52,580 bases of DNA from Malassezia furfur (Eukaryota). The notes below the pieces were generated by a model. It made no database searches, was not told the DNA's origin, and saw nothing but the letters and a program-made list of their open reading frames with translations. Where the stretch lies: assembly GCA_052055015.1 (NCBI GenBank), contig JBQJIT010000027.1, one strand, 5' to 3'. Positions 9,101 to 50,867 of the stretch are shown piece after piece; position 1 is the stretch's first letter, and every line of letters starts with the position of its first letter. A program made the translations under genes and the position numbers.

Positions 9101-9242
9101 CGCGTGTGTGTGTCAGAGCCTCGTGTAATAGTTGCTAGGGCCAAGACTTGCTTACGAAATGCGCACGGGCCCTGCGTGCCCGTGGGCAGGGGGCCGCAGG
9201 GGATTGGGGGGCCGGCGATGCGCGCGGTTAGGCGCACCCACC

Positions 9243-16153: not shown

Positions 16154-16264
16154 ACGCATTCTTCGTGTCGGTCGAATAGGAAAACGCCGGAGCCAATGCT
16201 TTTGAGCGGATTTCGCACAAGTCCGGCCGAGCGCCATCGAGTCATGCCTAATGTGGAGGAACAC

Positions 16265-19777: not shown

Positions 19778-19860
19778 GTTCCGGTAGCTCAGGGGTAGAG
19801 CGGCAGATTGCAATATGCAACTACATCTGCAGGTCGTGCGTTCGAATCGCGCCCGGAACT
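19778..19860 (+). tRNA. tRNA-Cys(GCA) with 11-nt intron (19814-19824)
   Basis: Acceptor GTTCCGG/CCGGAAC, D-arm GCTC/GAGC, anticodon stem GCAGA/TCTGC with TT-GCA-A loop, T-arm GTGCG-TTCGAAT-CGCGC, T-run downstream. Confidence 0.92.
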
Positions 19861-20015: not shown

Positions 20016-20471
20016 TTACACATTCGAACGATCATGCTGGTCTGGGAATGGGTTTTCCATTCGGGCCTTTTCAATGGCGGGGTTCAAACCTTTGATGTGG
20101 ACAGCTTGCTAGAAATGGTCAGTAAAATGGATAATGGAAAACAAAATACGTACCTTCACGCACGCTTGGTATTCAGCAAACAATTTTCCACAATCGTGCT
20201 CATAGCGCTCCCGTAGCACAGCGAGATGTTGTGTCATCCGGTTGCTCCCAGAAGACAGACGCGGAAATCCACTCGTCCAAGAACCCTTCGCAGGTGTTGC
20301 ATTGGTATCAATATATTCGGAAGATGCATCGAGGTAATCCTTGAACCATGCGTTGAAGCACCGATCGTAGGTGTGCTTGAGCGGCGTGCATTCCGGAGAG
20401 AGGGAGTCCATCAGTCCCAATGACGCGGATTCATTGGGAACTGTTGACTCGCCAGCTGCACCAGAAGACAT
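20016..20471 (-). CDS. MDM35: Mitochondrial intermembrane lipid-transfer partner Mdm35/TRIAP1, 2 exons
   Basis: Twin CX9C (SLSPECTPLKHTYDRCFNAWF ... CGKLFAEYQACVK). 45-nt intron at 20109-20153, then exon QAVHIKGL...NV*. The start could alternatively be 20411. Confidence 0.85.
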
Positions 20472-21190: not shown

Positions 21191-21751
21191 ATGGGATTCG
21201 AGGAGGGTGACGCTAAGAAGGGTGCCAACCTGTTCAAGACGCGCTGCGCGCAGTGCCACACCATCGAGGCGGGTGGTCCCCACAAGGGTATGTCGCCAAT
21301 GCCTCTCGCATTGAACTGTTGCTAACACGAAATCAGTGGGTCCCAACCTGCACGGTGTTGTTGGCCGTCAGTCGGGTAAGGCCGAGGGCTACAACTACTC
21401 GGAGGCCAACATCAAGAAGGATGTGCTCTGGAACGAGCAGAACCTTTGGGAGTACCTCGAGAACCCGAAGAAGGTACGTTTTTCTTTATACATAAGAACA
21501 GTCACTAACACGCGCAGTACATTCCTGGGTATGTATATGAACGCACCATGGCAGTGGTGTGATGCTTGTTGGAACGAATACTGACCTTGTTTGCTACTCG
21601 TGCATTTGCACGATGTGTTTTGATGTACAGCACCAAAATGGGTATGTACCTTTCGTGGGAGATAACGTATTAACCGACAGCTTTCGCTGGTCTGAAGAAG
21701 GCTAAGGACCGTGACAACCTCGTCACCTACATGAAGGAGGCGTCTCAGTAA
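21191..21751 (+). CDS. CYC1: Cytochrome c, 5 exons including two 11-nt microexons
   Basis: [19 protein letters not shown] (CxxCH), [27 protein letters not shown]. Introns at 21288-21336, 21474-21517, 21529-21630 and 21642-21680. Confidence 0.96.
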
Positions 21752-22327
21752 ATTTGCTGGCTTGTAGAAGACTAGCATTACAGCTTTTTTTCAATCGTCT
21801 TAGGCGTTAAGGTGTTGGATGCTATGCGCTTATAGTGCAGTGCCAGCAGTAACTGCCACTAGGCTGAAGGCCGTGCAATGCGGCCTGTGTATGCCGACCT
21901 CGGTACGTTATCAAGCGGTTGTGTGCGCGGTTCTGTCAGAGCGCCATGTCCGCGGCGATGCCCGGCTCCCCGACCTTTCCGCCCAGGGAGGCCGTGCGGA
22001 CTTGAAGGGCTTGTCAGCCTCGGTGCTGTGCGTCCCGATCTGATTGGTTGGCGCGTGGATGACAAGGGCGCGACGCCAGTGGCGACCGCGGCATAGATGA
22101 CTAAACCGACTCGGGTCCGCCGGATCGACCTTTCCCATCGCAAATCGGGTATCTGTCGTCGCCTGCGAGACAGAATCTGGATCGAGGCTGCATACCCATT
22201 CTGGTGAGGATCGGTTGTAGCGTGACCACGGGGAAGTTTTGTGCGCGTTCACCTTGTCGATCCAAGGCACAGTAGACCAGTTGTGCACCGGAGTCAGTGA
22301 ACACGCGTCTTCACTAGCTGCCAGGTT

Positions 22328-23926
22328 ATGGCAAAAGCGAACCCAAACGTCTCTCGATTACCCGACTCCGACGTTGTGAAACTACCTCCCCTTCGCTCCC
22401 TCGAACCCATGGCACATACAGCTCCTGAAAACACGACGCCTCGCGAGCAGGAAGCGCTAACCGCCTCAGCGCCTGTGGCGTCCGACGATCGCGCCGCGCC
22501 CTCCGCCGAGAAGCCCGGCCTCGACACCGCGGCACGTGCATCCTTCCGGTCGTCGCAAGCGGCGCCCGCCGCGGCGTCAAGCCAGAGCAGCTACCGTTCA
22601 CCGTCGCCACCCCCGCCGGCGCCCGCTGCATTGGCGTCGCTCGGCGCGCAGAGCGCGCCGTACGAGTCCCATGGCGAACCTCGCCCGTCGCGTGCGGGCG
22701 AGGCTCCCCCCCATGCCAACTACGCCGCGAGCCGTACCGGTGCAGCTACAGCGATGCCTCCTGTGGCGGCCGCACAGCCTGCGATCGCGCCGTGGTCGTC
22801 TGGCATGCAGGGCACGATGGAGCCGAACACCTTGTACTCGCTCGAGCGCATCCATGCCGCGAGTCTTGCGTTGTACAACTACGCAAGCGAGCATCTGGAG
22901 CGCCAGCTACCGGCTGCGCCCGAGGAGCTGTATGGGCTGTTGCCAATCGCCTCGGAAATTGGCCAGGAGCTGCGCTCGCTCTTGGGCATGCACGAAGGTC
23001 GCATGCCTCGCGACGCTGGCGACGTCGCACCTTACTACCCGTGGACGTCAGGCAGCGGTGCTGCGCCGCCGTACTGGATGCCCGGCAGCCGTGACGAGCG
23101 TGACGGCAAGACGCTGCGTGGCGACGAGGGCGATGCCGACGACAAGTCCGGCCATCTGCGCCGCCGCAGCCCGAGCCAGGCTAAGATGAACGACCGCATG
23201 GCGCCGCGGGGCATGCGTACTCTGTCGGGCGGCGATGATCTCGGGTCGTATGCGTCGAGCGTGTCCGGTCAGCCGATGCGCGCCGATTCGATGTACCTGC
23301 AGCAGCCGTACGGCGCGCATGGCGTCGGGAAATCCACGCAAGGCGATGCGGGCGGCTCGGGGCAGTATGTACCCAAGTACCGCAAGCGGAGCCGTGCACC
23401 GGCGCCAGGTGTGTGCCATGCGTGTGGCAACAGCGACACGCCCGAGTGGCGCCGGGGCCCCGACGGCGCGCGGACGCTGTGCAATGCGTGCGGCTTGCAC
23501 TTTTCCAAGCTGGTGCGCCGGCGGACGTTGGAATACGCCAATGCGGCGCCTGGCACGCCCATTCCGCCGGTGACCACGGCGGAGCTGCGCGCGTCGACGA
23601 ACGTGGGCAACCATGCTAATATGAACATGTCGCCGAACGCTGGCAATGCGTCTGTCCCTGTGCGGACGCGGCCTGCGTCGATGTACAGCAATCCGGCGGC
23701 AGGGCCTACGTCTGCGCGGCCCGTGCCCGTGGACCCGGCGGTTGAGGTGGGCGGCGTCGGTGCGTCGAGCGTGCCACCTCCTGCGCCGCAGCCGGCGCAC
23801 GCCGAGCTTGACCGGTCGCACGACGTGAGCCGGAGCGAGGATGCGGGCGCGAGCCTTGGCAAGCGTCCTGCGGGCGAAGCGAGCGAGCTTGAGCCGGCGA
23901 GCCAGCAGCCGCGTGCTGAACCGTAG
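22328..23926 (+). CDS. GATA-type zinc-finger transcription factor (NsdD/Gat2/Gat201-like, C-x2-C-x18-C-x2-C)
   Basis: CHACGNSDTPEWRRGPDGARTLCNACGLHFSKL, preceded by the basic PKYRKRSRA. Confidence 0.9.
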   Translation: MAKANPNVSRLPDSDVVKLPPLRSLEPMAHTAPENTTPREQEALTASAPVASDDRAAPSAEKPGLDTAARASFRSSQAAPAAASSQSSYRSPSPPPPAPAALASLGAQSAPYESHGEPRPSRAGEAPPHANYAASRTGAATAMPPVAAAQPAIAPWSSGMQGTMEPNTLYSLERIHAASLALYNYASEHLERQLPAAPEELYGLLPIASEIGQELRSLLGMHEGRMPRDAGDVAPYYPWTSGSGAAPPYWMPGSRDERDGKTLRGDEGDADDKSGHLRRRSPSQAKMNDRMAPRGMRTLSGGDDLGSYASSVSGQPMRADSMYLQQPYGAHGVGKSTQGDAGGSGQYVPKYRKRSRAPAPGVCHACGNSDTPEWRRGPDGARTLCNACGLHFSKLVRRRTLEYANAAPGTPIPPVTTAELRASTNVGNHANMNMSPNAGNASVPVRTRPASMYSNPAAGPTSARPVPVDPAVEVGGVGASSVPPPAPQPAHAELDRSHDVSRSEDAGASLGKRPAGEASELEPASQQPRAEP

Positions 23927-24181
23927 GCACCGCAGCTGCGCTTTGTATTGGTACTATAGCCTTGGATAAAAAAGATGCCACAACACATACATCGCCGTCG
24001 CTCGACAGGCTCGGCGAGAGGGGGAGAGAGAGCATAAGCATTTCTTATGGATTTTGGGCGCAGCGTGCTCGGCTACATAAACGATACATGGCTCCCATCG
24101 CAAGTGGGTGGTGGGGACGACCAGAAAAGCAGACAGACCATATGCGTACACACCACAAGCGCCATGAGCCAACACAAACGC

Positions 24182-24796
24182 TTAACGGTAGCGGCGGAGC
24201 TGCAGCGTCTGGGTCCGGCGGTACTCGGCGGCGCGGCTGCCACCGGTGGTCTGGTGGAAGCCGTGGCCCTTGCCGATACCACGCGACTTCTTGCCGGCCG
24301 ACGTGAGGCCGCGGAGCTCGCGGTGCTTGTGAACGGGCTCGGCGATCCAGTTGATGCGCGCGTCGCGGCGGATCGCCTTGTGCTGAGGGTCCACGCAGAT
24401 CACCTCGTAGTACTTGTACACACCGTCCTGGTTAACCCAGTACGAGTTCAGCACGCGGAGGTTGGTCGCCTTGCGGCCAACACGCTCCTCAGCGAGCACA
24501 CGGAGCGAGCGAGCGGGCTTCAGGTGGTTGACACCCTGGCGGACGGGCTTGCCGTACGTCGCACCCTTGGAAGCCTTCTTCTTGCGGTTGCCGCGGCGGA
24601 CACGCACACGGAACATGACGTAGCCCTGCTTGGCCTTGTAGCCCAGGCGGCGAGCCTTGTCAGGGCGCGAGGGGCGCGAGATGCGCGAGACCACGTTCAT
24701 CTGGCGGTACTCCCAGCACCGAACGCGAAGCAGGAAACGGAGCACATCGCTCTGCTTCTTCTTGTAGAGCTCCTCCAGGTACTTGTAGGCACCCAT
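24182..24796 (-). CDS. RPL15: 60S ribosomal protein L15 (eL15); 5'UTR intron 24797-24873 ends at the ATG
   Basis: [32 protein letters not shown] ... [19 protein letters not shown]...TACTAAC...TACAG|ATG lies directly upstream. Confidence 0.97.
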
Positions 24797-25124
24797 CTGT
24801 AGTGTGTGTTAGTATATGTTCTTTGTGTGGATCCACGGTGCCCGTCGCAGGCGGCTCGGTGGACGATGCGTACCTTGCTTGAAGAGAAGGGATGGTAAAG
24901 AAGCAAGCGCCCGGCCGCGAGCGCCCTTGGCTCGCCTGCGCGCCGCTCGCCTTTTTTGGTGGCCTAACAGGTCCGGGCAACATGCTGTGACATAGAATCA
25001 CGTGGAGACATATAGCTTTGCAGTTTCAATTCGGCCGAGAAACTGCGAAGAACTGCAGTCGGGCGAAAAGGAGGCAGGGGATCGACGCAGTTGGAACTCA
25101 ACCACCGACGTTGGGCTGCTCATC

Positions 25125-26085
25125 ATGGTACGTACGCACGTCGTGCGCGCGCGCAAAGAGCCCAGTACTAACCATACTACAGCCTTTCCACAAGACCGTG
25201 AAGTCGGACGCTTACTTCTCGCGTTACCAGGTCAAGTACCGCCGCCGTCGCGAAGGTAAGACGGACTACTACGCCCGCAAGCGCCTCGTCGCTCAGGCCA
25301 AGAACAAGTACAACGCGCCCAAGTACCGCCTTGTCGTTCGTTTCTCGAACCGCTTTGTCACTTGCCAGATCGTCCAGGCCAAGATCCAGGGCGACTACGT
25401 GCTCACCCACGCCAGCTCGCGCGAGCTGCCCCGCTACGGCATTAAGCACGGTCTGGCCAACTGGACCGCGGCTTACGCGACCGGTCTCCTGGTCGCCCGC
25501 CGTGCCCTGCGCATCCTGGGCCTTGATGAGAAATACGCCGGCGAGGAGGAGCCCACTGGTGAGCTCACCATGACCGAGCCCCTCGGTGACGACGAGCCCC
25601 GCCCCTTCAAGTGCTACCTTGACGTGGGTCTCAAGCGCACCTCGACTGGTTCGCGTGTGTTCGGTGCCATGAAGGGTGCCTCGGACGGTGGTATCTTCAT
25701 TCCCCACAACGAGCGCCGCTTCCCCGGCTACGACCCCGAGTCGAAGGAGCTCGACGCCGACGTTCTGCGCAACTACATCTACGGTGGCCACGTCGCCGAG
25801 TTCATGGAGGCCCTCGAGGAGGAGGATGACGAGCGCTTCAAGAAGCACTTCTCGTCGTACCTCGAGGACGACATCGGCAGCGAGGACATCGAGGAGATCT
25901 ACGAGAAGGCCTACGAGGCCATCCGTGAGGACCCCGAGTTCCACCCTACCGAGAAGACCAAGGACTGGGCTGCGGAGTCGAAGAAGTACAAGAAGGTGCC
26001 TCTTACCTACCAGGAGCGCAAGGACAAGGTGCACAAGAAGGTCCAGGAGTACGCCCAGAAGTACGACATTGTGGCCGACAACTAA
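25125..26085 (+). CDS. RPL5: 60S ribosomal protein L5 (uL18); intron 25128-25182 directly after the ATG
   Basis: MPFHKTVKSDAYFSRYQVKYRRRREGKTDYYARKRL ... VFGAMKGASDGG. Confidence 0.97.
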
Positions 26086-26954
26086 TCTTGTCCGTATATT
26101 TTCTGTTGCGTGTGTACGACCTCTACTGCACTGCGCATGGGAGACCAAAAGAGTTGGACCGACTCGCTTCCGTCATGGACTTGGATAGACATATGAAGGC
26201 GATATCGGTGCAATTTGACATGATTACTCTATATATGGTTCGTGTTGTATGGAGGCAAATGCCAACTGAGTCGGTAGTGTCAGAGCGGCATCTCGTGGAA
26301 TCACTAAAGCCCGCTGTGGCATGCGAGCGTTCGGTCGGGCTGGAATAGGAACTGTGTTGTGATGCGACAGCGAATCGGCATGGTTTCGACGAGCAAGACA
26401 AGGGCTGGGTCTTGGGTACTATATTCTAAACGCCGGAATGCCATGCAGCTCGCGTAAATTGCGAACACATGTACCCTGCTGATATTAATCCTTGTGACAA
26501 GTAATAAACTCATTTCCTTAGCATATATACTTCGTTCTACGAAGATATGCTTGGAGTGTGCAAGTGGTAAAAGAGGATATGAGTGTCGACTTCTCATTCT
26601 AGCAAATTAAACCGTGGTCTACGTAACGCGTCCACTACGGGACGCACACAATCCTTCTATACAGATGATGAACACTGAATAGACATAAAAGCACATTTCT
26701 TAGCGTACACTACCTCAATATTTCGCCCTAGCTTATACTACCCAGAATTAAGATCATGATACATAATCGTATTGATGCGTTCTTTGTCGCGCGCAAAATA
26801 CATGTGGTCCGTGCGCTGCATCTCGCTGACTAGTACGAGAACGTGCGCGACAACTAACCAAAAAGGAATAAGACTCTGCATGTTTGCCGATGTGGTACCC
26901 TCCAAAGGATTCAAATATGATACACAGTTGTGAAACTTAACCCCCCACCTCAAG

Positions 26955-28574
26955 ATGATGCACCTCTCCTACTCTCTGCTCCCGTTAGTCCTGATTGCCG
27001 TCGTTTCTGCTGCGTCGTCGACTCCCAGCAGCTCGGTGTACTGGGGCAATGTTACTGGCTCCAAGGGACAAGTTTATCCGACGGACGTGGGCTTCCTCGG
27101 TCAAACGACCTATAGCTCGCCTCCCTTCCTCGCGCAAGTGGATAAGCTAAACACGACTCGTCCGAATGGCAAGTACGGAGTGGAGATGCGCTGGCTGCCG
27201 AAGTACGGCAAGCCCGACAATTCGTCGTCTGACGACATCTTCCGTAACCTCGGTCAGGTGTCTCCTTATCACCCTGCCAATGACCTGTTTAATTCGACGA
27301 ACAAGTATGCGAATGTCCCGGACCATTGCGAGATCAAACAAGTCCACATCCTCCACCGCCATGGAGCTCGCTACCCTACGGGCGGAAGCACCGGCGGTGA
27401 ATACCAATTTGGTGACAAGGTCCGCAACGCAACCAAAGAGGGTAAGCTGAAGGCAAGCGGCGATTTGGAATTCCTTATGCACTGGAACTACAGCCTGGGT
27501 ACCGAAGTGCTCACGCATGTGGGTGCGCAGGAACTGTTTGACTCGGGTGTGAAGCACTACTACCAGTATGCTAAGCTTCTTGAGAACCTCACGGACCACA
27601 AGCCCGTTATTCGCACGACGTCGCAGAGCCGTATGCTGGACTCGGCGCGCTACTGGACGCTTGGTTTCTTCGGTTGGGATGCTCCCACGAAAATGCATCT
27701 TGAGGTGATCACCGAAGACAAGAGCCAGAACAACACTCTCGCTCCTAACTGTGTGTCGTCGAACACGACGAAAGTGGCGAAATGGTGGGAGAAGGAGTAC
27801 ACCGTGGCCATTGCGGATCGTCTGAATGCCATGGTTGAGGGCATCAAGATTGAACCCAGCGATGTTTATTACATGCAAACGCTTTGTGGTTATGAGACCG
27901 TCTCCTTGGGCTATTCTCATTTCTGCAACATCTTTACCAAGGAAGAATGGCAGCAGCACGAATACGATGTCGACCTCCAATTTATGTCCGGGAGTGGCCT
28001 GATGAGCCCCAGCGCGAAGGCGATGGGCATCGGCTACGTGCTGGAATTCCTGGACCGTGTCACCAAGCAAAAGTTCCACGGCCCCCAGACGACGCAGAAT
28101 TCTACATTGGACGAGCAAGAAGCGTACTACCCTATTGATCAGCCCCTGTACGCTGACTTCACCCACGACACGGTCATTACCAACATTCTGACGGCTTTCA
28201 ACTTCACCCAGGTCCTGCAAGTGCTTGACCCCACGAACCCTGATGACAACCGGACTTACCGCGCCAGCCGTGTCACTCCGTTCGGTGCACGCCTGGTCTT
28301 TGAAGTCCTCGACTGCAATGAGGACCAGAACTCCACGCAGTACATTCGCGCTAAGCTCAACGAAGCTGTTGTTCCGCTTGATGGTAGTCAGGGATGCCAG
28401 GCACGCCCGGATGGTCTCTGCAAGCTGAACGACTTTGTTCAGAACCTCCAGCAGCACGCCTACAAGAGCTCGCACTTCGATGTGGCCTGTTTCGGAACGA
28501 ACGGGACTGACTACACTATTGGTGACTATGTGACCACTGGTACTCTCCGTCCTTCCCAAATTAACAACAACTAA
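26955..28574 (+). CDS. Secreted histidine acid phosphatase / phytase, copy 1
   Basis: Signal peptide, HILHRHGARYP catalytic motif, YADFTHD acid motif, many N-X-S/T sites. Confidence 0.92.
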   Translation: MMHLSYSLLPLVLIAVVSAASSTPSSSVYWGNVTGSKGQVYPTDVGFLGQTTYSSPPFLAQVDKLNTTRPNGKYGVEMRWLPKYGKPDNSSSDDIFRNLGQVSPYHPANDLFNSTNKYANVPDHCEIKQVHILHRHGARYPTGGSTGGEYQFGDKVRNATKEGKLKASGDLEFLMHWNYSLGTEVLTHVGAQELFDSGVKHYYQYAKLLENLTDHKPVIRTTSQSRMLDSARYWTLGFFGWDAPTKMHLEVITEDKSQNNTLAPNCVSSNTTKVAKWWEKEYTVAIADRLNAMVEGIKIEPSDVYYMQTLCGYETVSLGYSHFCNIFTKEEWQQHEYDVDLQFMSGSGLMSPSAKAMGIGYVLEFLDRVTKQKFHGPQTTQNSTLDEQEAYYPIDQPLYADFTHDTVITNILTAFNFTQVLQVLDPTNPDDNRTYRASRVTPFGARLVFEVLDCNEDQNSTQYIRAKLNEAVVPLDGSQGCQARPDGLCKLNDFVQNLQQHAYKSSHFDVACFGTNGTDYTIGDYVTTGTLRPSQINNN

Positions 28575-28809
28575 TCGACATATGTATGTCCTTTGTCGTC
28601 TCTAGAGTTCGTGAATCCGGTTCGCATAAAGAATAGTAAAGCGTAGATGCGGGTGCATATTCAAAGTTTGGTTTTGTCCCACAGATGCTGCACGTGTACA
28701 TGGCCCGTGCATGCATTGTACTAAATTTGGCTTACTGCAACACAGGTTACCCAAGATGCAGTGCACATAAAAGGCAGAGCATCTACGTCTATTCTTTGCC
28801 TATCCCGCA

Positions 28810-30429
28810 ATGGTCAGTGCGCAGTGGGTTTGTGCCATTGCCACGGTTCTTGGAGTATCGTTTGCTACCAAAGACGGCTCGATTCAGCCAGGCCATGGCT
28901 TTGTGACATCGCTAGAAACTTTCCCGGACAATGTCGTGAGCACGGGTGAGGTAGCTCCTGGTGCACCTCCTTTCACCGCCCAATACGACAAACTGAATTC
29001 CACGAAGCCTTTTGGTCCCTATGGCATTGAAATGCGATATGTTCCCATGGATGCGGATGAGGACAATGCAACTGCTGCAGACATTTTTACTAACTTGGGT
29101 CCTTACACTCCATGGCGACCGAGTACTCTGTTTCCAGAGACAAGAGCTTACCAAGTTGTACCCAAGCATTGCAAAGTGAAACAAGTGCACATGCTCTACC
29201 GCCATGGTGCTCGCTACCCCACGGATGGTGCTGATGAGGGACCTGGCCTGTTTGGTGCAATGGTTAGGAATGGGACGCGCGACAACAGTTTCCGGGCAAC
29301 AGGCGATTTGGAATTCTTGAACAACTGGAACTACAGTCTGGGCCAGGCGTTGCTGGTTCCCCAAGGTGCGCAAGAAATGTTCGACGCCGGCGTTCAGACC
29401 TATTACGCGTATGCTAAGCTCTTGGAGAATACCACGCAAAAGCTGGTAATTCGTACGACTACGAGCAGTCGTGTTTTGGACTCTGCTCGTTACTGGGCGC
29501 TTGGGTTTTTCGGATGGGATGCGTCTTCCAAAGTCGATATAGAGGTGCTCCCTGAGGCCGACAAGCAAAACAACACGCTGGAGCCCAAGTACAGCTGCCC
29601 AAATGGCAAGAAGTTTAGCTTTGGTGATCAACTTCGAAAAGAATGGCAAGAAGTCTATCTTCAAGAACCTTTGGACCGTTTGCAGCAAAACATCGAAGGT
29701 TTGAACTTGACAATTGATGATGTTGCCAACATCATCTCGCTGTGCCCTTATGAGGTCTCTGGCCAGGGTTATTCTCGTTTCTGCAGCCTTTTCACCAAGA
29801 AAGACTGGGAGAACTATGAATACGAGCACGACCTAAAGTTCCAGGGCAACAATGGATTTATGAACCCGACTGGCAAGGCCATGGGTATTGGCTACGTCAA
29901 TGAGTTCTTGCAACGCATTACCAAGGGAAATTTCAGTGCGCCTCAAACTACCCAGAATGCCACCTTGGACAACGATCCCACCAAGTTCCCTCTCAATCAA
30001 TCCCTTTACGTGGACTTTACGCATGACACGGTCATGGTGAGCATTTTGACCGCCTTCAATTTCACCCAGTTTAGCAAGCCGCTGAGCTCGAGCAGTGTAT
30101 TGAATGGTCGCAACTTCCGTGCAAGTGCGGTGGTGCCCTTTGGTGGTCGTGTCGCATTTGAAGTTCTTGAATGCGATGGATCCCAGGCTCCCAGCGACTA
30201 CATCCGGGTCAAGGTTAATGATGCAATTCTTCCTCTGGATGAGGGACAGGGGTGCTCAAAACGGCCGGATGGACTTTGCAAACTTGACGATTTCATTGCC
30301 TACGCCCGGAAGAACGCAAACGATGCAGCACAATTCGAGTTGGCCTGCTATGGACAAAACGGGACGGACTTTACTGTGACGGGACCGGTATCTGGTGGTA
30401 CACTAGAGTCGAATCAAATCCATAATTAA
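28810..30429 (+). CDS. Secreted histidine acid phosphatase / phytase, copy 2
   Basis: Signal peptide, HMLYRHGARYP, YVDFTHD; collinear with copies 1 and 3. Confidence 0.92.
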   Translation: MVSAQWVCAIATVLGVSFATKDGSIQPGHGFVTSLETFPDNVVSTGEVAPGAPPFTAQYDKLNSTKPFGPYGIEMRYVPMDADEDNATAADIFTNLGPYTPWRPSTLFPETRAYQVVPKHCKVKQVHMLYRHGARYPTDGADEGPGLFGAMVRNGTRDNSFRATGDLEFLNNWNYSLGQALLVPQGAQEMFDAGVQTYYAYAKLLENTTQKLVIRTTTSSRVLDSARYWALGFFGWDASSKVDIEVLPEADKQNNTLEPKYSCPNGKKFSFGDQLRKEWQEVYLQEPLDRLQQNIEGLNLTIDDVANIISLCPYEVSGQGYSRFCSLFTKKDWENYEYEHDLKFQGNNGFMNPTGKAMGIGYVNEFLQRITKGNFSAPQTTQNATLDNDPTKFPLNQSLYVDFTHDTVMVSILTAFNFTQFSKPLSSSSVLNGRNFRASAVVPFGGRVAFEVLECDGSQAPSDYIRVKVNDAILPLDEGQGCSKRPDGLCKLDDFIAYARKNANDAAQFELACYGQNGTDFTVTGPVSGGTLESNQIHN

Positions 30430-30789
30430 CTATCGTAGTTTCCAGTAGATTCAGATTTGGGATGTTTGTGCATGGTTCAAGCATGGACCTCACGAGGTGA
30501 GCGCATGTCCACGTTTCAATTAATTGGGATGGGGCGTGCGTGGGGGCTTAGTAAAGTTTCTTTGAAAACCAAATATAGGTATGCGATGCATCCCCGCATC
30601 CTTTGAGTTTATCCGTTATATGACACAACTGATTGGCATAGGCATGAGCGCAAGCGCACGTGTGCAGACCATGCAGCGAAACCTTCCTTAATCAAAGCCC
30701 AATGTATTGTCAACGCTTCAAGCCAAACAAGGGCCGTACTTAAAGAGCTGCTCTTCTCTGGGTTTCCAGTCATAGCCTGCGCCTTCAAG

Positions 30790-32397
30790 ATGGTCTCTGC
30801 GCTCGCTCTTCTGCCCTTCGTGTGCATTGCCGTGGCCAGCGCTCAGTCGGCGACGCCAACCAACTGGAACAATGTGACGGGCACCACCAGCGAGGCGTTC
30901 CCCACGGATGTCGGTTTCTTGGGCACCATGGCGTATGGCAAGACCCCGTTCCTCGCGCAAGATGACAAGATCAACTCCACCAAGTCTTTTGGTAGCTATG
31001 GTATTGAGACGCGCGAGCTTCCGTTGAACGGTGACCAGGACAACGCTACCTCTTCCGACATTTTCCGCAACCTGGGTACCACATCGATCTACCACCCGGC
31101 TGACGATCTGTTCCCTGAGACGCATGGCTACGAGATCCTGCCTGACCAGTGCACGGTGAAGCAGGTGCACATCCTCCACCGTCACGGTGCCCGTAACCCG
31201 ACGAGCGACACCCACGAGGGTGCACCTCTGTTTGGTGCTGCTGTCTGGAACGCGACCCAGGCGGGCAACCTTTCGGCTACCGGTCCTCTCGAGTTCCTGA
31301 ACTCGTGGAACTACACGCTCGGTGCCGAGGTGCTTGTGCACCAGGGTGCGCAGGAACTGTTTGACTCGGGTGTGAAGCACTACTACCAGTATGCTAAGCT
31401 CCTTGAGAACCTTACGGACCACAAGCCCGTTATCCGCACGACGTCGCAGAGCCGTATGCTGGACTCGGCGCGCTACTGGACGCTTGGCTTCTTCGGCTGG
31501 GATGCTCCCACGAAGGTCAACCTGGAAGTTCTTACGGAGACCCAGGGCCAGAACAACACGCTGGCCCCCTATGAGTACTGCACGAATGCCGACAACTCGT
31601 CTTTCTACCTCGGCGACCAGATGAGCACCGAGTGGCAGAAGGTGTACCTGAAGGACGCCATCCAGCGTCTCCAGGGTGACCTGAAGGGCATTGAGCTGGA
31701 CGAGACGATGGTGTATGGTATGATGAGCATTTGCGCCTACGAGACGGTCGTGATGGGCTTCTCCAACTTCTGCTCGCTCTTTACGAAGGAGGAGTTTGAG
31801 AACTACGAGTACGACATCGACCTGCAGTTCATGGGCGACTACGGCTTTATGAACCCCACTGGCCGCGCTCAGGGTATCGGCTGGGTCGTGGAACTGCTGG
31901 ACCGCATGAACATGACCAAGTTCGATGGCCCCGTTACGGGTCAGAACACCACGCTCGATGAGAACGAAATGTACTTCCCTGTGGACCAGATGCTCTACGC
32001 CGACTTCACCCACGACGATGTCATTACTTCGGTTCTGACTGCACTGAACTACACGCAGTTCAGTGAGTTCCTGCCTACCACGCAGCCGAACCCCAACCGT
32101 CGCTACCGCTCGAGCCGCGTCACTCCCTTCGCGGCTCGCCTGGTGTTCGAGGTGCTTGACTGCAACTCTACCGACCTGCAGGGCTCGTACGTCCGCACGA
32201 AGATCAACGATGCGGTGATCCCCATGAACCAGGACCAGGGTTGTGAGGCGCGTCCGGACGGTCTCTGCAAATTCAACGACTTCTGGAAGCACCAGTACCA
32301 GAACGCGTACAAGGACTCCAAGTACGACCTGGTGTGCTTCGGGCAGAACGGCACCGACTTCGTCGTTACCGGACCTGTCCGCAACGGCACTGTTTAA
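30790..32397 (+). CDS. Secreted histidine acid phosphatase / phytase, copy 3
   Basis: Signal peptide, HILHRHGARNP, YADFTHD. Confidence 0.92.
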   Translation: MVSALALLPFVCIAVASAQSATPTNWNNVTGTTSEAFPTDVGFLGTMAYGKTPFLAQDDKINSTKSFGSYGIETRELPLNGDQDNATSSDIFRNLGTTSIYHPADDLFPETHGYEILPDQCTVKQVHILHRHGARNPTSDTHEGAPLFGAAVWNATQAGNLSATGPLEFLNSWNYTLGAEVLVHQGAQELFDSGVKHYYQYAKLLENLTDHKPVIRTTSQSRMLDSARYWTLGFFGWDAPTKVNLEVLTETQGQNNTLAPYEYCTNADNSSFYLGDQMSTEWQKVYLKDAIQRLQGDLKGIELDETMVYGMMSICAYETVVMGFSNFCSLFTKEEFENYEYDIDLQFMGDYGFMNPTGRAQGIGWVVELLDRMNMTKFDGPVTGQNTTLDENEMYFPVDQMLYADFTHDDVITSVLTALNYTQFSEFLPTTQPNPNRRYRSSRVTPFAARLVFEVLDCNSTDLQGSYVRTKINDAVIPMNQDQGCEARPDGLCKFNDFWKHQYQNAYKDSKYDLVCFGQNGTDFVVTGPVRNGTV

Positions 32398-32606
32398 TGT
32401 TATTCACTCGTTCTTAGGGAAATTGTCACTATAAAGTTGGTTAATCACATGGAGTACACCGAGCTGCCAAAGCTGCATGCTCAGCCGCGACGCGCCCCGT
32501 GTGCATGTGGAGGAGAGCCGATGTGATCACGTGCGCGCGGCCCGGTCCGGAAAGGGCCGTTGATTTATAACGGACGTACTAACCACATTTGCCGTACATA
32601 CACATC

Positions 32607-32974
32607 ATGGCTGGCTCTGACGCTGCTAAGAAGGTTTCGAGCTGGAAGAAGGTGTATGTACTGTGCCGATAAGACTAGTATGCTAACAACAGTGCGCCCG
32701 TTGAGGTTCTGCCGATCATCTTCCTTACCGGTTTCGCTCTCGCTGGTGCGGGCTGGTACTTGACCCGCCTTGCCCGTGGTCCGGAGGTGATTTGGGACAA
32801 GAAGGTAAGCAGCGACCGTGGCAAAAAGACCTAACCCCAGAACAACCCCACTCCGTGGAACTCGATTGAGCCGGGCACCCAGTACAAGCTGTACAACATC
32901 AACGTACGTGCCGTCTGGGAGACTAACGACTTCAGGGTCAATTCGACAAGACGTACAAGCGCGACCGGCTCTAA
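32607..32974 (+). CDS. NDUFA4/COXFA4-like (B12D family) small single-TM mitochondrial protein, 4 exons, 86 aa
   Basis: Removing introns 32654-32692, 32805-32840 and 32904-32935 gives MAGSDAAKKVSSWKKVAPVEVLPIIFLTGFALAGAGWYLTRLARGPEVIWDKKNNPTPWNSIEPGTQYKLYNINGQFDKTYKRDRL*. Confidence 0.85.
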
Positions 32975-33074
32975 GTGTTTGTCTTTTTCCATTAGACCAC
33001 TGAATTCATCGCTCTTGCATTTTCGACGAGGCCTGGCGAAGCAGATCTCGGGCTCATTGTGTGTTTGTCTACGT

Positions 33075-34514
33075 TTAATACACGTATGGGATGATACGAT
33101 ATGGCACACGCTTGCACTGTGGTCAGTTTGGGCAGTGGTACATACGTAAGTGTCCCAACTGTGGCCCCGCGAGGGGTGTGCGTCAGTATGTCGAGCGTGT
33201 GTACGTACTCGGCTCCATATTTCTTCTTGCATGCTTCGTCGTCACGCAGCTGGCGGTGGACCAGGAGAATGGCGAAGTACACGACATAGAAGTACGGTAT
33301 GGGTGATCCAAACCCACAGGTAAGGCACCATGCCCAGGCCATGAGCCAATCGCCCAGATAGTTCGGGTGACGGCTCACGCCCCACCAACCGGAGATGAGG
33401 AGCTTGCGCCCCGTTGAGGTCGTCATGAATTGCAGGTTCTTCGGGTTGTGTCCCTGGCGGAAATCGTTCTTCTCGACGTTGGCCGTGCGGAAGATGTAGT
33501 ATCCGACCAGCTGCACGGCCAGGATGGCCAACACGCCGATCGTGCCGAGACGCACCGGCTCGAACGCAAGGTAGCGCGCTTGGAGTGAATAGGTAAAGGG
33601 CACCCAGACTAGGTCTCCGACGCTTAACATGAAACCGAACCCGTCCGTGGTGATGTCCATCTGGGAGAAGATGGTCTCCTCGTGCAGCAGGGAGTCCACC
33701 ACGTACCAGCTGTGGAAAAACAGAACAAGCCACATGCTGTCGGACACGTATCCAAACTGGGTGTGCTGCCAGCACGCACAGCTGGCGTCCACAAGTACCC
33801 AAAGGATAAGACCCGGGCGCAGCTCGTTGAACGTCTTGATATCAAATAGACCAATGCGGGGGTTGAGCTCACGACCGATGAACCACTGTGGTGAGGCAGA
33901 GGAGACGTACATCATACACGACATTGCCGGTGTTTCCGCCCAACGCAAGAAGCTTGTGACCGTAGAACGAGGCCACATACACGTACACGGCTTGTGCGAT
34001 GGAGTTGACCAGTGCGACACTCAGAAGGCCGAGCCAATGGTCGTACAGGATGGTGAAGCTCGCCGGTCCGTACACAGCAATGTATCCTGCAGCAGCAGCT
34101 AGCGCAACGAGACCCGTAGCCAGTGCTGTGTGAGCCATGCCACTTACCGTTTGTCTTGTACTCCAGCTGGTGGCCCGTCCGCAGCGGCAGGCCCTTGACC
34201 CACTTCCCTGGCAAGAAGTACCAGGCGAGAACGCAGTAGAGGTACCAGCCAGTGTATAATGCCCATGCCGTGCCATCGGTAAAACTAGCACCCAAGGTCT
34301 CACGCACATACTCCACGAAGGCATCCGTGTTGCTGACAGGGAGCGACAGCGCACATCCCAGTACATCGTTGCATCCGAGCGCGAAGTAGTACGCAGTCAA
34401 AGGCACCGTCGTCGAGATGAACAGCGCGCCGGCGAATCCGCCGAACTCGACCTCGGTGGTACGCGGTGCAAGAACGTTTTTGGCCGTCGTCTGGCTTGCA
34501 GGTGCGGCAGTCAT
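33075..34514 (-). CDS. ERG24: Delta(14)-sterol reductase, 5 exons
   Basis: EFGG, FIGRELNPRIG, ELRPGL, DITTDGFGFML, LLISGWWGVSRHPNYLGD, and [23 protein letters not shown] after splicing. Introns at 34126-34147, 33886-33910, 33159-33208 and 33117-33145. Confidence 0.93.
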
Positions 34515-34625
34515 CGTTCCCAACCAAACGATCCAACCTGCGCACTGACTAAGATCGTACGACTCTGGGCCCGTAAATTTGGGCACAATTTGCCGATCTC
34601 CTCCACACGGACATGCGCTCTGACC

Positions 34626-36344
34626 ATGTACTGTCCGGGCTGGTTGTGGGTGTGGGGTTTGTGGCTGCTCGGATCCACACAGGCTCTCTCACTTCGACAG
34701 CATACATTTGCTGTGGATGATGCGACAGAAACAGAACATCGCATCCCCAAGTGCCCATCGAATGACACGTCGCCACTTTTGCGGGTGGCAATTATTGGCG
34801 CCGGGCCGTCCGGGACCAGTGCCGCGTATTTTCTTAGCACGGCCCAACGGCAGCTTGCCAAGCATGGCATCCCCGGCTGCGACATGGAGGGAATACAGAG
34901 CGAGCTACAGGTGACAGTGTACGAGCGTGAGGAGCGCGTGGGCGGACGTGTGCTTGCCGTGCACCCGCTCGATGACCTCCGGCTTCCCCCCGTGGACATT
35001 GGTGCGAGCATCTTTGCCAATGTGAACCACAATCTGGTCCACGCGGCAGACAAGTTCCGACTCCGGCAAACGAGGCCGAGTTCCAAGGTGTTTGGCCCTA
35101 TGGGGCTATGGGATGGCCAAGAATTCATCGTGGACGATTTCGACGGATCGCGGTGGAGCCAATGGAAACTGTACTGGCGCTACGGAAAGGGCCCGCAGAA
35201 GGCCATGTCTTTGTACGTGACATGCTGACGCAGAGTCGAAGAGGCTATGAAATCCTTCCAGCGCATCTATTCGCCACGATTCTTGCATGACCCTGCGTCG
35301 GATGCTGGTTATCCTTGGCCGAGCGTTGCAGCGCTCGCAGACCAAATTGATGCGCGCGGTCTTGTCTCGCAATCGGCGCGCGCCTACTTCGCCGACAACA
35401 AAGTGTCAGAAGCATGCATGGACGAGCTGATCAATGCTGCGACGCGCGCCAACTACGCCCAGGAAATCCAGAACATCCATGCGTTTGCTGGTCTGGTTTC
35501 AATGGCGACCAATGGCCCCAACGGGGTCCAAGGGGGCAACGCACAGATCTTCCAACATATGCTAGATCGCAGCACTGCCACGGTGTATCGTGGAGCAAGC
35601 GGAGAAGTGACAGGCATCATGAAGATCCAATCCGAGACGACCGAACAAGATGCGCCTATCACGCAGTGGCGCATCGGCACGCGGGACGGCCACAGCGACG
35701 TTTATGATGTGGTGCTGATCGCGGCACCGTGGCACAGCTCCGACATCACGCTGCTGAATACGGAGAAATCCGTGCCGGGCTTTCGGTACCAGCGACTCTA
35801 TGTGACGTTGGTGGTGACGGACGCACCGCAGCCAGATCCGGTCTATTTCGGCTTTGACCGCACCTTTGACCGTGTGCCCCGTACGATCGTCACGACGCAC
35901 CTCGAAGGAAATGGGCCCGACTTCTTATCACTGTCGTACCAGCGGCGCTTGAAGCACGCCAAGTACCAGGGCCGGACGTGGGATGCACTGTACGTGGTGA
36001 AGCTCTTTTCCTGGGCACCCATACCGTCCAAGACCCTCGATAAGATCTTTGGGAATGGCCAGGTGGTCTGGACGCACGAAAAAGCCTGGTCTGCGTTCCC
36101 CAAGCTCACGCCGACCGACCGGCTGGGCGACTTTGAGGTGGACACCAATCTCTACAACGTGAATGCGATGGAGCGGCTCATTTCCACGATGGAGACAAGC
36201 ACGCTGGCGGCGAAGAACGTCGTGGCTCTCGTGCTGCAGAAATGGCTCGGGTCGCACTTCGTGCACGGGGCACGGTGCAAATGGACATCGCATACACCGG
36301 ACGTCGCTACGGAGTGGGACTCGTGGGGCTGCCAAAGCAGCTGA
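34626..36344 (+). CDS. Prenylcysteine oxidase / farnesylcysteine lyase-like flavoprotein, 2 exons
   Basis: Signal peptide, RVAIIGAGPSGTSAAYFL, VYERE.RVGGR, DIGASIF, RANYAQ, VQGGNAQIF and ISTMETSTLAAKNVV. The 21-nt intron at 35213-35233 contains an in-frame TGA. Confidence 0.88.
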
Positions 36345-36412
36345 GTCCGGGTGCGCCCCGACGTCCTGATGAAATCCTTGTACTTTATGTAACTATCCAC
36401 GCAGCGTCTCGG

Positions 36413-36964
36413 TTAGAAAGTACCGCGAGTGACCTTCTCGAGCACTGTATATAAGTCCCTGTCCATGTCAACGTACCAGCATCGTAGGACACCTCACTGA
36501 GATCCGTGCCCTGGATCTCCGCAGCGATACCCACGAGAGCCTTGCGGAGCGCGTCCTTCGACGAGGCATAAAGCATCTTTTGCTTCACCTTCGACTCATC
36601 GGGGGACCTGCGAGGTTAGCATCACGTTCTTGTCACCCGCCGTCGGTCGGTACGTACCACGTCACAAACACAATCTTGTTTCGCATGCCCTCATCGCCCT
36701 TTTGGTACTCAAAGTCGTAAACAGCGTAGCGGCACTCCGCGGCGGGGAGCTCCGCAAGGAAGTCATCGTAGTTCGTCGATTCGCTGGTCTTGGCGACCAC
36801 GATTTCCGTGTTGTCCGGCGAGAGCGTGTAAATGATGTAGCGGATCTTCTTGCCCAGCTTCAGGGCCTGGAACTGCTCCAGGCAGTCCTGGTTCACTTTC
36901 ACACCAGAGGACTGTTATGCGTTAGCATATGATCGACCAAGGCAAAAATCTATCGACGCACCAT
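36413..36964 (-). CDS. COF1: Cofilin, 4 exons
   Basis: [23 protein letters not shown]...[11 protein letters not shown]...[27 protein letters not shown]. Introns at 36912-36961, 36608-36657 and 36445-36476. Confidence 0.95.
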
Positions 36965-37241
36965 GTCGTTGGGAAATTAACGGCAATGAATCACACGCAA
37001 CAAAGGACGTGCAGGGTGCTGTTACCTGGGCTCGGCCCGTTCCGCCAGCGCGAGTGAGGCCACGTGACATTACCCCGCCTTCGGAAACGACGCGCAACGC
37101 CGCGCGGTAGAGCCACGAAAGACGTCTGCGCAACGGCGTGGCAGGACTGCCGAAGACATGGGAACGGGCCTAGTCTATATTGTGCTTGACATGCGAGCTC
37201 GACCATATCCTAAAACAAAAGGTGCGGACGGGAGCAAAAAT

Positions 37242-37336
37242 TGTGGCTAGCCGGAATCGAACCGGCGTCTCATCGGAATTGTTGTGTTTGACAAGCAAGC
37301 CACAACGATACGTACTGACCACTATACTATAGCCAC
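37242..37336 (-). tRNA. tRNA-His(GTG) with 23-nt intron (37277-37299)
   Basis: Minus strand GTGGCTA/TAGCCAC acceptor, TAGTATAGTGGTCAGTAC D-arm, TATCG-TT-GTG-G...C-CGATG, GCCGG-TTCGATT-CCGGC, A discriminator, then a T5 run. Confidence 0.9.
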
Positions 37337-37642
37337 TCGACTTGTAGTGGCTTGCCACCTAAGCATCTATAAGCGCCCGGTAATCAAGCGTGCCTGTCGG
37401 CCCGTGGGGGCGCAGCCCACGCGGCTGGCGTGGCGTCGAGTGTTAACCGGCACATGACTGGCTGCCGAGGCTGGGTAAAATAAGCCACTGGGTCTGCTCG
37501 CGTGGCAATTGCAGTGCCCGGCCAGTCGCTGCCCGCCGAGGAGAATCTCGTTCTTTCATCCAACCCACCGAATCGGCCCTGGCTGATCGTGCTGACTCTA
37601 TCCTTGTGTCCAGCATACACCTGCCTCTCTTAGGAAACAATC

Positions 37643-38411
37643 ATGACTGAACTCCGCAGGAAGTTGGTTATTGTCGGTGATGGTGCCTGCGGTAAAACGT
37701 GTCTGCTGATCGTGTTTAGCAAGGTGTGTATGGGCTAGTAAGGCTGGGGTAAACTCGTCCTGGCCTTGCCCTATCTGGCACGGGAATGTATACTGACACT
37801 CGCGGCTGCGCGTTTGGCACATGTGTATGTGCCTTTGCATTTCTACAAACAGGGTACTTTCCCGGAGGTACGTTTTCGCGTGAGTTGTTGCAGGACACAT
37901 GCTGACCAGTTTGTGACAGGTGTATGTCCCCACGGTGTTCGAGAACTATGTTGCGGATGTGGAAGTGGACGGTCGCCACGTCGAGCTTGCGCTTTGGGAT
38001 ACTGCCGGCCAGGAGGACTACGACCGTCTCCGTCCCCTGTCGTACCCTGACTCCCACGTCATCCTTATTTGTTTCGCGGTTGACTCGCCTGACAGTCTGG
38101 ACAATGTCCAAGAAAAGTGGATCTCCGAGGTGCTGCACTTCTGCCAGAACCTTCCCATCATCCTTGTGGGCTGCAAGAAGGACCTGCGCCGTGATCCCAA
38201 GATCATCGAGGAGCTGCGCAAGACGAGCCAGCGCCCGGTGACGCCCGACGAGGGCATGGCTGTTGCATCCAAGATCGGTGCTGTGCGCTACCTGGAATGC
38301 AGTGCCAAGACCGGTGAGGGTGTCCGGGAAGTGTTTGAGCATGCCACGCGTGCGGCTCTCATACAGAAGCCTCGCGGCAGCCGGGGCAAGTCCAAGTGCT
38401 TGATCCTTTAA
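37643..38411 (+). CDS. RHO1: Rho1 GTPase, 3 coding exons including a 15-nt microexon
   Basis: [38 protein letters not shown]...[19 protein letters not shown]...CLIL (CAAX). Introns at 37724-37852 and 37868-37919. Confidence 0.96.
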
Positions 38412-40477: not shown

Positions 40478-41452
40478 TTATTCCTCCCTACGACTCGAGC
40501 GCAGGCGGGCTTCGGTCGCCGCGCGGATCGCGTCACGATCGGGTACCGAGCTCGGCTTGGCCCGTGCGGTACCTGCGGCGGTGCCGGTCGTTTGGCCCCG
40601 TGCTCCGAGTGGCCACCACGACGAGGGCCACCAGCTCGACGTACCCGGCTGCGGCGCGCGAGCAGTATACGCTGTCCCGTACGATCGCGATTGTATCCGC
40701 GTGTTACCCGCCAACAGTCGCCGGACGCGAGGCGGCGTGACCAGCCAGGGCTGGATGTATTTGATGAGCACCGCATCCAAATTCGCGCGGCGCCCAAGCG
40801 AGTTACCCGGGCGAAGGCGCGCATAGCGGATATAGTTCCACACAAACGCAGATGCCAGACCGGTCGCCGCCTCCAGCATCAAGGCCGGGCCGCCGACGAC
40901 CAAATCGATGAGAAGGTTGGCGTACGGCAGATACTTGGCGGGCAGCGTCACTGCTCCCATCAACGAGACTTGCGCCTCGGGAATCCGCGCGGACCACACG
41001 TACTGTGTCAGCCATTCCAACATACAGTAAGCGCATTGAGTAAGGCATGGAAAAGGATGAGGCTCCGCAGGGGGTAATTCAGTGCCTGTGTGAAACATGC
41101 ACGTACCACAATCATGCAACTAATCACGAAAAGCGCCCACGTATAGTCTGCTGTGTCGCCCATCAGTCCATTCTCAAGTTCAGAGGAGGTTCGACTGAGT
41201 TAGAGCATCACATACTAGAGAAACAGGGTGTTGAGCAAAAGGGAAATTCCGTTTCCCCCGTACAGGAAGGATGTCACCAGACGCCAGACCTGGCCTTTCC
41301 GCCAAATCAGCGGCCAAAACAGCACAAAGCGATACGGAGTTGTGATTCCGAGCAGGCATGGCAGCGTCACAAATGCCTCTCCCACAAGCAATGCACGCGT
41401 CACGGGTGGCAACGAGCGACTAGGTTAGCCGGGTCACGTACATGACATCCAT
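40478..41452 (-). CDS. Derlin (Der1/Dfm1-like ERAD membrane protein), 5 exons
   Basis: MDVIRSLPPVTR...QVWRLVTSFLYGG...LYRTSSELE...ADYTWALF...YVWS...PAKYLPY after removing introns 41420-41441 (22 nt), 41195-41215 (21), 41086-41106 (21) and 41003-41025 (23). Confidence 0.87.
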
Positions 41453-42601: not shown

Positions 42602-42687
42602 GACCCTATAACTCAGTTGGTTAGAGTGTGGAGCTAATACCCTCTTGTGTTACTCCAAAGTCGCCAGTTCGAGCCTGGTTAGGGTCA
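42602..42687 (+). tRNA. tRNA-Ile(AAT) with 12-nt intron (42640-42651)
   Basis: GACCCTA/TAGGGTC acceptor, ACTC/GAGT D-stem, TGGAG-CT-AAT-A...A-CTCCA, GCCAG-TTCGAGC-CTGGT, downstream T6. Confidence 0.92.
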
Positions 42688-49617: not shown

Positions 49618-49691
49618 TGCCGATCGCCCGATCACGGTAGGGTGTATGTCACGTGCTTTCTGTCGTTTGTGGGCCGCTCCAGAAGACGACG

Positions 49692-50822: not shown

Positions 50823-50867
50823 GCGACGCTGCATACGCAGATTCCGTGCATAGTCTACAGCTCGTCA

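Follow-up and report, generated by a model that had tools for sequence, protein, structure and literature searches.

We analyzed the introns of a 52,580-nucleotide (nt) stretch of Malassezia furfur DNA (contig JBQJIT010000027.1 of assembly GCA_052055015.1), called the window below, and focused on those that precede microexons in three genes, CYC1 (cytochrome c), ERG24 (sterol C-14 reductase) and RHO1 (a Rho GTPase). An earlier note on this DNA had proposed that the three genes share a module in which a distant TACTGAC branch point, a hairpin and an AG-free zone directly precede a microexon. We found that three of the four microexons in the window follow an intron with a far branch point and an AG-free gap before the acceptor, and that the predicted hairpins look incidental. 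The scope is this one 52.6-kb window, in which splice sites and branch points were read from sequence motifs.

The window is 59.7% G+C. Pfam profiles named genes for a CCT chaperonin, cytochrome c, RPL15, RPL5, a B12D/MLRQ protein, an ERG4/ERG24 sterol reductase, prenylcysteine lyase, cofilin, a Ras-family Rho GTPase, GDA1/CD39, a Der1-like protein, DcpS, TBCD, an Hpt protein and others. The housekeeping genes are split by very short spliceosomal introns with the pattern GTAYGT ... CTRAC ... YAG. Malassezia sympodialis is reported to have 5350 introns with a mean size of 30 bp (PMC5389616), and the 20-55-nt introns of the window match the intron sizes given in that source.

CYC1 lies on the plus strand and has five exons (21191-21287, 21337-21473, 21518-21528, 21631-21641 and 21681-21751), separated by introns of 49, 44, 102 and 39 nt. 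Exon 3 (21518..21528; TACATTCCTGG) and exon 4 (21631..21641; CACCAAAATGG) are each 11 nt long, and exon 3 encodes Y-I-P-G jointly with the exon that follows it. In an alignment with yeast iso-1 cytochrome c, exon 2 covers residues 34-78 and the last exon covers 87-108. The eight residues in between correspond to 11+11+2 nt, so homology calls for both microexons. Intron 3 (21529..21630, 102 nt) carries TACTGAC at 21579-21585, which places the putative branch A at 21584, 46 nt from the acceptor G at 21630. The gap between them is U-rich and AG-free, and a TCGTGC/GCACGA stem is predicted in it at 21598-21613. Intron 4 (21642..21680, 39 nt) has TATTAAC with the branch A 7 nt from the acceptor. Intron 2 (21474..21517, 44 nt) has an ordinary layout, with CACTAAC and the branch A 9 nt from the acceptor. 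The 11-nt exon 3 is therefore a real counter-example to the pattern, as the earlier note had already conceded. Nested or recursive splicing of the 26 nt at the 5' end of intron 3 (GTATGT...CAG) was considered and rejected, as no branch-like motif was seen by eye at 4-12 nt.

ERG24, on the minus strand, has four introns of 22, 25, 50 and 29 nt. Intron 3 (33208..33159, 50 nt) contains TACTGAC at 33188..33182. The putative branch A at 33183 is 24 nt from the acceptor G at 33159, across a C-rich, AG-free gap in which CCCC-TCGC-GGGG is predicted to form a 4-bp stem at approximately 33176..33165. The microexon that follows (33158..33146, 13 nt; TTGGGACACTTAC) completes a D and then encodes W-D-T-Y. 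In intron 4 (33145..33117, 29 nt), which has AACTGAC, 6 nt separate the branch A from the acceptor. The large exon preceding the microexon takes the Pfam ERG4_ERG24 profile up to position 414 of 432. The remaining 18 profile positions equal 1+4+13 residues, which makes the microexon required by homology.

RHO1 is on the plus strand. Its intron 1 (37724..37852, 129 nt) has TACTGAC at 37791-37797, with the putative branch A at 37796, 56 nt from the acceptor G at 37852. This gap is also AG-free, and stems are predicted in it at 37801-37812 and 37816-37833 (CGCG/CGCG and GGCACAT/ATGTGCC, respectively). The microexon (37853..37867, 15 nt) encodes G-T-F-P-E. Positions 1-20 of the Pfam Ras profile lie in exon 1, and the profile restarts at position 28 with residue 2 of exon 3. 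This break leaves exactly five codons, GTFPE, so the RHO1 microexon is likewise required by homology.

Intron 2 of RHO1 (37868..37919, 52 nt) has TGCTGAC, and the acceptor used is 14 nt from the branch A. Splicing passes over a CAG only 4 nt past the branch A (TGCTGAC-CAG). Several Pezizomycotina-like loci found in the metagenome scan described below share this GCTGAC-CAG...CAG layout in their RHO1 intron; in the upstream introns of L019, L028 and L026, too, the next AG, 11-14 nt away, is used. The skipped CAG suggests, from the sequence, that the minimum usable branch-acceptor distance is about 5 nt. Two candidates in intron 1 were rejected. ATTCTAC near the acceptor could be taken as a proximal branch, with its A 7 nt from the acceptor here, but the corresponding distance is 3 nt in the relative L001 (below). 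Nested or recursive splicing at the start of the intron was dropped, since no branch-like motif was seen by eye at 4-12 nt.

For all three introns, the coordinates in the earlier note were right to the base when the sequence was read directly, and we counted 0 AG between TACTGAC and the acceptor in each of them, as it had said.

We compared the RHO1 layout with that of a relative. A metagenome scan with RHO1 exon 3 returned 80 loci, 61 of which were screened for exon structure. One of these, L001, is on a 162-kb contig that is syntenic with the window (prenylcysteine lyase, cofilin, tRNA, RHO1 and GDA1). Protein identity is 96%, and exon DNA identity approximately 85%. L001 has the same 15-nt microexon (2436-2450), followed by a 50-nt intron. 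The intron before the microexon is 151 nt and contains TACTAAC, with its A 36 nt from the acceptor and a gap that is AG-free and 72% pyrimidine. The two versions of this intron are poorly alignable (~57%), and the length of the gap drifts, from 56 nt in the window to 36 nt in L001. The cofilin genes differ in intron content (975-1400 on the minus strand of the L001 locus; 36385-36964 in the window). L001 cofilin keeps only the 46-nt intron directly after the ATG and lacks introns 2 and 3, the 50-nt and 32-nt introns of the window gene. These losses indicate that intron content is fluid between close relatives, yet the far-branch layout of RHO1 was retained. The comparison of this layout between orthologues covers RHO1 in this one relative. 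A scan of genome contigs with RPL15 and 10 kb of flank, for fungal contaminants syntenic with CYC1 and ERG24, gave 46 loci, all archaeal.

The intron between FPE and VYVP of RHO1 was present in 18 of the 61 screened loci. Nine of these look Pezizomycotina-like and have a 28-nt exon, and five have an exon of approximately 42 nt. In the nine loci with a 28-nt exon, the branch-acceptor distance was 10-17 nt by eye, which is ordinary for such fungi, and the distance from branch to donor was 38-45 nt, above ~35 nt.

We found that far branch points were associated with microexons across the window. The census comprises 36 curated introns in 14 genes, obtained with a dynamic-programming gene finder, hand inspection and continuity of Pfam profiles. 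With a strict branch motif the gene finder missed introns with degenerate motifs, and with a relaxed motif it fused neighbouring genes through spurious long introns. The spurious introns were dropped (4051-4130, 4051-4250, 9081-9252, 16161-16268, 32332-32436 and 32499-32692), as were an 84-nt call in cofilin and all gene merges in 21642-25000 and 49502-52035. An apparent 115-nt intron of NIP30 was also dropped; it is really two introns, of 26 and 22 nt, around a 67-nt exon. The 36 intron lengths were 20, 21 (three introns), 22 (five), 23 (two), 24 (two), 25 (four), 26 (two), 28, 29, 32 (two), 36, 39 (two), 44, 45, 49, 50 (three), 52, 55, 102 and 129 nt. Two further introns are uncertain and were left uncounted, one in TBCD at 45965-46042, 78 nt long with a branch-acceptor distance of 4 nt, and one in YPD1 at 47488-47542, 55 nt long with a distance of 10 nt. 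Counting both leaves the test of branch distance unchanged, and the TBCD intron lifts the longest intron in the comparison group to 78 nt.

In the 32 introns without a microexon directly after them, lengths were 20-55 nt and branch-acceptor distances 4-14 nt (median 6), in line with the short distances described in the earlier note. Only four internal exons were 20 nt or shorter. These were 11-15 nt long, and the branch distances in the introns before them were 9, 46, 24 and 56 nt. The next smallest internal exons (60, 63, 67, 81 and 87 nt) each lie behind an ordinary intron. A far branch (>14 nt) was found in 3/4 of the introns preceding microexons. In contrast, 0/32 of the other introns had one (Fisher p=5.6e-4; Mann-Whitney p=0.0013). 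Two curated introns exceeded 55 nt (102 and 129 nt), and both precede microexons. Within the window, the association is above chance, with the reservations that few microexons are involved and that the pattern was recognized post hoc.

The motif itself is not unusual in the window. TACTGAC occurs 5 times against 3.62 expected, and 29/100 shuffles reach 5, so it is not over-represented. Four of the five copies are in curated introns at the branch position, and the fifth is inside the tRNA gene at 37242-37336. Nor is it exclusive to microexons. In the 45-nt intron at 20153..20109 it lies 10 nt from the acceptor, before a normal exon.

We found that the sequences on the two sides of the distal motifs differ. 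In the three window introns and L001 together, there were 0 AG in the 162 nt downstream of the motifs, compared to 10 in ~230 nt upstream. Singly, an AG-free gap could arise by chance with P of approximately 0.10 (CYC1), 0.35 (ERG24), 0.06 (RHO1) and 0.18 (L001). Pyrimidine content was 0.54-0.72 downstream and 0.39-0.46 upstream. The enrichment was clear in L001 (0.72) and CYC1; the ERG24 gap is rich in C and G, with a U content of 0.04. As far as sequence can tell, AG-free and pyrimidine-enriched downstream halves are the hallmark of a genuine distant branch followed by an AG exclusion zone. In addition, RHO1 and ERG24 offered no proximal branch candidate under a relaxed motif (NTNA followed by C, T or A).

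The three introns might be relics, a few introns that have not yet shrunk in a compacting, intron-losing lineage. Their position before microexons would then be chance and the far branch functionless. There are just four microexons, one of them behind an ordinary intron, and the Fisher test in the window, which speaks against coincidence, weakens to p=0.0095 with a conservative branch call. In CYC1 and RHO1 the part from donor to branch is also long (55 and 72 nt), which is what a generally unshrunk intron would show. In contrast, the gap takes up half of the ERG24 intron although this intron is short (50 nt in all), so more than total length is unusual. Exclusion of AG and enrichment of pyrimidines are restricted to the downstream half. 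The drift of the RHO1 gap between relatives fits a relic, but the long intron persists in L001 despite its scrambled sequence and the two lost cofilin introns. We consider this explanation unlikely, though it retains some weight.

The pyrimidine content of the gaps raises another alternative, that they provide room for a polypyrimidine tract. Microexons would then depend on acceptor recognition of the U2AF/Mud2 type, ultrashort introns would be recognized by a fixed donor-branch-acceptor spacing, and selection would act on tract binding. The enrichment described above, clearest in L001, is consistent with this, as is the perfect TACTRAC in all four far-branch introns (including that of L001), given that many ultrashort introns have degenerate motifs. 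Vertebrate microexons are also reported to have extended polypyrimidine tracts (PMC12871342). However, U is nearly absent from the ERG24 gap, CYC1 exon 3 is included with no tract before it, and none is present in other 39-55-nt introns that have a perfect CTRAC motif. Binding to a tract seems to us a poor candidate for the main cause. It overlaps with the reading of the gap as a spacer that we set out below, and sequence alone hardly separates the two.

We examined the hairpins by folding each gap alone. The stems listed in the earlier note are present, and each is the predicted minimum free energy (MFE) structure of its own gap, at -10.2 (CYC1), -6.8 (ERG24) and -15.6 (RHO1) kcal/mol. Compared to 200 dinucleotide shuffles, these energies had z scores of -1.37, -0.81 and -0.71, respectively, and 18/200 (CYC1), 46/200 (ERG24) and 41/200 (RHO1) shuffles folded as well as the gap. 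Stems with such scores are what sequences of this kind give by chance. The 7-bp GGCACAT/ATGTGCC stem of RHO1 was not found in L001, where folding gave only a 4-bp CGCG..CGCG stem around a 19-nt loop (z -0.13). The whole of RHO1 intron 1 did fold better than its shuffles (z -2.70; 2/200). This is due to a long stem in the 5' half, at 37724-37790 (GGGC..AAGGCUGGGG / CCUGGCCUUGCCC), and the L001 orthologue lacks it (z -0.32). Judged by these predictions, the small hairpins in the gaps look incidental.

Thus, of the module proposed in the earlier note, the far branch and the AG-free gap were borne out, and the functional hairpin was not. The note had taken the stems as an RNA-structural device; they are no stabler than shuffles, and the main RHO1 stem is absent from L001. 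Stem conservation could be checked in RHO1 against L001 only, and the lack of it there is an outcome that the note itself had named as evidence against its proposal. A functional hairpin, one that brings the acceptor to the catalytic centre or times splicing, perhaps in response to temperature, does have models. COF1 and UBC13 of Saccharomyces cerevisiae are reported to need such stems (PMC3239191), and branch-distant exons of Schizosaccharomyces pombe that are independent of Sde2 appear, in the account given, to be bridged by structure (PMC9508853). In the gaps described here, however, there are no decoy AGs to mask, and the gap in L001 is a pyrimidine tract. Folding would also shorten the spacing rather than extend it, and the corresponding vertebrate region is reported to be unusually unpaired (PMC12871342). 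Although each stem is the MFE structure of its gap, we think a structural role very improbable.

We suggest that the gap is best read as a spacer that gives the splicing machinery room before the next donor, a reading that we hold tentatively and rate at a little short of an even chance. The spliceosome would need free RNA downstream of the branch, for SF3b/U2 and for DEAH helicases. Prp2 would load approximately 26-32 nt downstream, and Prp16 and Prp22 would bind there as well. Because the branch is normally ~5 nt from the acceptor in this genome (4-14 nt, median 6), the downstream RNA that is needed would be supplied by the 3' exon. After a gap of 5-10 nt and an exon of 11-15 nt, the needed stretch would instead reach into the next intron's donor and the machinery that occupies it. 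The shortness of the next exon (11-15 nt) would be the reason why the branch has stayed, or been moved, far upstream of the acceptor, and a gap of 24-56 nt would restore at least ~35 nt from the branch A to the next GU. The gap would be AG-free because, after a distant branch, the first AG is chosen as acceptor. The spacing would then be the selected property, and we infer that Prp2, U2 or U1 could be the parties that need room. Steric limits for very short internal exons were reportedly described by Black in 1991 and by Rymond and Rosbash in 1987.

The distances from branch A to the next donor are consistent with this reading. Sorted over the internal exons, they were 20 (CYC1 exon 3), 37 (ERG24), 57, 65, 69 and 71 nt, and upward. 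With a spacer, the distances were 37 nt in ERG24, 57 nt for CYC1 exon 4, 71 nt in RHO1 and 51 nt in L001. The remaining internal exons had at least 65 nt, with CYC1 exon 3, at 20 nt, as the sole exception. Exon 3, which lacks a spacer, might be handled by splicing order, with the downstream introns removed first. Removal of intron 3 would leave 9+11+11 = 31 nt to the next donor, and removal of intron 4 as well would make the exon effectively unlimited. CYC1 intron 2 is therefore predicted to be spliced last. Skipping would shift the reading frame (11 and 13 nt) or remove GTFPE from RHO1 (15 nt), so constitutive inclusion of these microexons is expected. The suggestion in the earlier note that such introns act through spacing or ordering fits the association, the AG-free and pyrimidine-enriched gaps and the 36-nt gap of L001.

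Several points weigh against reading the gap as a spacer. The branch points were placed by motif, and ultrashort introns of this window use degenerate versions of it (CTCAC, TTCAC, CTTAT, CTTAC and ATGAC). CYC1 intron 3 does have a weak proximal candidate, TTGAT at 21620-21624, whose A at 21623 would be a branch 7 nt from the acceptor. With the most conservative branch call, 2/4 rather than 3/4 of the introns before microexons are far (p=0.0095). Because the donor-to-branch halves are also long in CYC1 and RHO1 (55 and 72 nt, as above), 'long intron' and 'far branch' are confounded. CYC1 exon 3, with 20 nt from branch to next donor, manages without a spacer, and in principle sequential splicing could handle any microexon in this way. 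The 32-34-nt requirement cited below is a human in vitro figure, and blocking of Prp2 by U1 at the next donor is an assumption. Finally, there are four microexons from one window, the pattern was spotted post hoc, and curation may overlook microexons hidden between ultrashort introns in open frames.

We observed one pair of hidden introns directly. In TBCD (plus strand), introns at 46624-46645 (22 nt) and 46727-46749 (23 nt) flank an 81-nt exon and are concealed inside an 820-codon open reading frame. They are hidden because 22 + 23 = 45 nt, and the unspliced frame stays open. Such pairs are an annotation trap and could conceal microexons elsewhere. The shortest introns, of 20-21 nt, are at 41551-41570 (+), 35213-35233 (+), 41195-41215 (-) and 41086-41106 (-). 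They have ~15 nt from donor to branch and the branch A 4-5 nt from the acceptor, and some have degenerate motifs (CACTCAC and GTTTCAC). Several ultrashort introns are backed by continuity of Pfam profiles. Non-consensus donors (GTAGGC, GTAAGC and GTACGC) were found in otherwise well-supported short introns at 43331-43352 (-, NIP30-like), 32805-32840 (+) and 41551-41570 (+).

Other features of the window include tRNA genes at 19778-19860 (+), 37242-37336 (-) and 42602-42687 (+). Two of these received odd anticodon calls from ARAGORN, probably because the genes contain introns. L001 has two copies of the 37242-37336 tRNA gene upstream of RHO1. Three tandem histidine acid phosphatase paralogues (26955-28574, 28771-30426 and 30790-32394, all on the plus strand) are intronless and match His_Phos_2 with E values of 1e-64 to 1e-70.

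Overall, this is a small-sample observation with one ortholog, in which the observation is real and the structural claim fails. The layout could reflect a hard rule across the genome, that a branch A must be at least ~35 nt from the next donor. Exon length would then become part of the splicing signal, and microexons would comply through an upstream branch or, if in tandem, through an obligatory 3'-to-5' order of splicing. We regard a rule of this generality as possible but on the unlikely side. If it holds genome-wide, the 'room downstream of the branch' known from human and budding-yeast structures and in vitro assays would constrain gene architecture in vivo. A fungus with minimal introns would then be a clean natural system for studying it, with a contrast of ~6 versus 24-56 nt rather than the 34 versus 45 nt of vertebrates, and would offer both an in vivo readout of the length of the helicase landing pad and a simple predictor of microexons in minimal-intron genomes. 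A lone strong TACTRAC far from an AG-free acceptor would point annotators to a microexon, and microexons commonly lead to broken gene models. Cytochrome c, sterol C-14 reductase and Rho1 are products of essential housekeeping genes. If far-branch introns depended on a particular factor, as on Sde2 in S. pombe, CYC1, ERG24 and RHO1 would be jointly sensitive to the state of splicing.

Work on the spliceosome provides a first comparison. In human splicing, PRP2 is reported to bind at approximately positions 26-32 downstream of the branch A and to translocate inward, which is why branching needs a minimum of 32-34 nt of RNA on that side (PMC10208982). In yeast, crosslinks are reported for Prp16 as far as 40 nt past the branch A and for Prp22 at 10-25 nt within the 3' exon (PMC7935899). 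The smallest distance from branch to next donor among the spacer-bearing introns described here, 37 nt, can be set beside the human requirement of 32-34 nt. The data on PRP2 landing are in vitro and structural, from human and budding yeast, and competition by a complex on the next donor is a presumption.

Two fungal systems have branch points beyond the norm. The S. cerevisiae distant-branch introns of COF1 and UBC13 are reported to need stable stems, which bring branch and acceptor closer and conceal decoy AGs (Gahura et al. 2011; PMC3239191). The introns analyzed here resemble these in having a branch far beyond the genome norm and predicted stem-loops in the gap. They differ in that their stems are at the level of shuffles, their gaps contain no AG that a stem could hide, and the 7-bp RHO1 stem is missing from L001; a tie to microexons is not part of the yeast cases as that report presents them. 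In S. pombe, branch-distant exons are reported to need Sde2, Cactin/Cay1 and Tls1 (Anil et al. 2022; PMC9508853). There too, a subset of introns in a short-intron fungus has a long branch-acceptor spacing and is potentially regulated; the abstract of that paper reports no link to the size of the downstream exon. We searched the literature for far branch points tied to microexons in fungi and found nothing comparable.

Distant branch points with AG exclusion zones are already known. Nearest to the present case comes a preprint by Randazza et al. (2026) on neural microexons of vertebrates. They report a predicted branch-acceptor distance with a median of 45 nt before microexons, compared to 34 nt before other exons, in human, and a gap with an extended pyrimidine-rich tract that is unusually unpaired, for which they propose steric relief (PMC12871342). 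As in that class, the introns described here have a farther branch and a downstream exon of 30 nt or less (11, 13 and 15 nt, from Pfam and PDB coordinates). Unlike that class, the contrast here is 24-56 nt versus ~6 nt, and the exons, which are expected to be constitutive, belong to housekeeping genes in a unicellular fungus. The 20-55-nt introns of this genome are under intron definition, and small stems are predicted in the gaps, whereas the vertebrate gaps are reported to be unpaired. An SRRM4/UGC system is not expected in this fungus. What is new relative to the vertebrate precedent is a much starker contrast, in a fungus with minimal introns and with presumably constitutive exons; the idea is the same.

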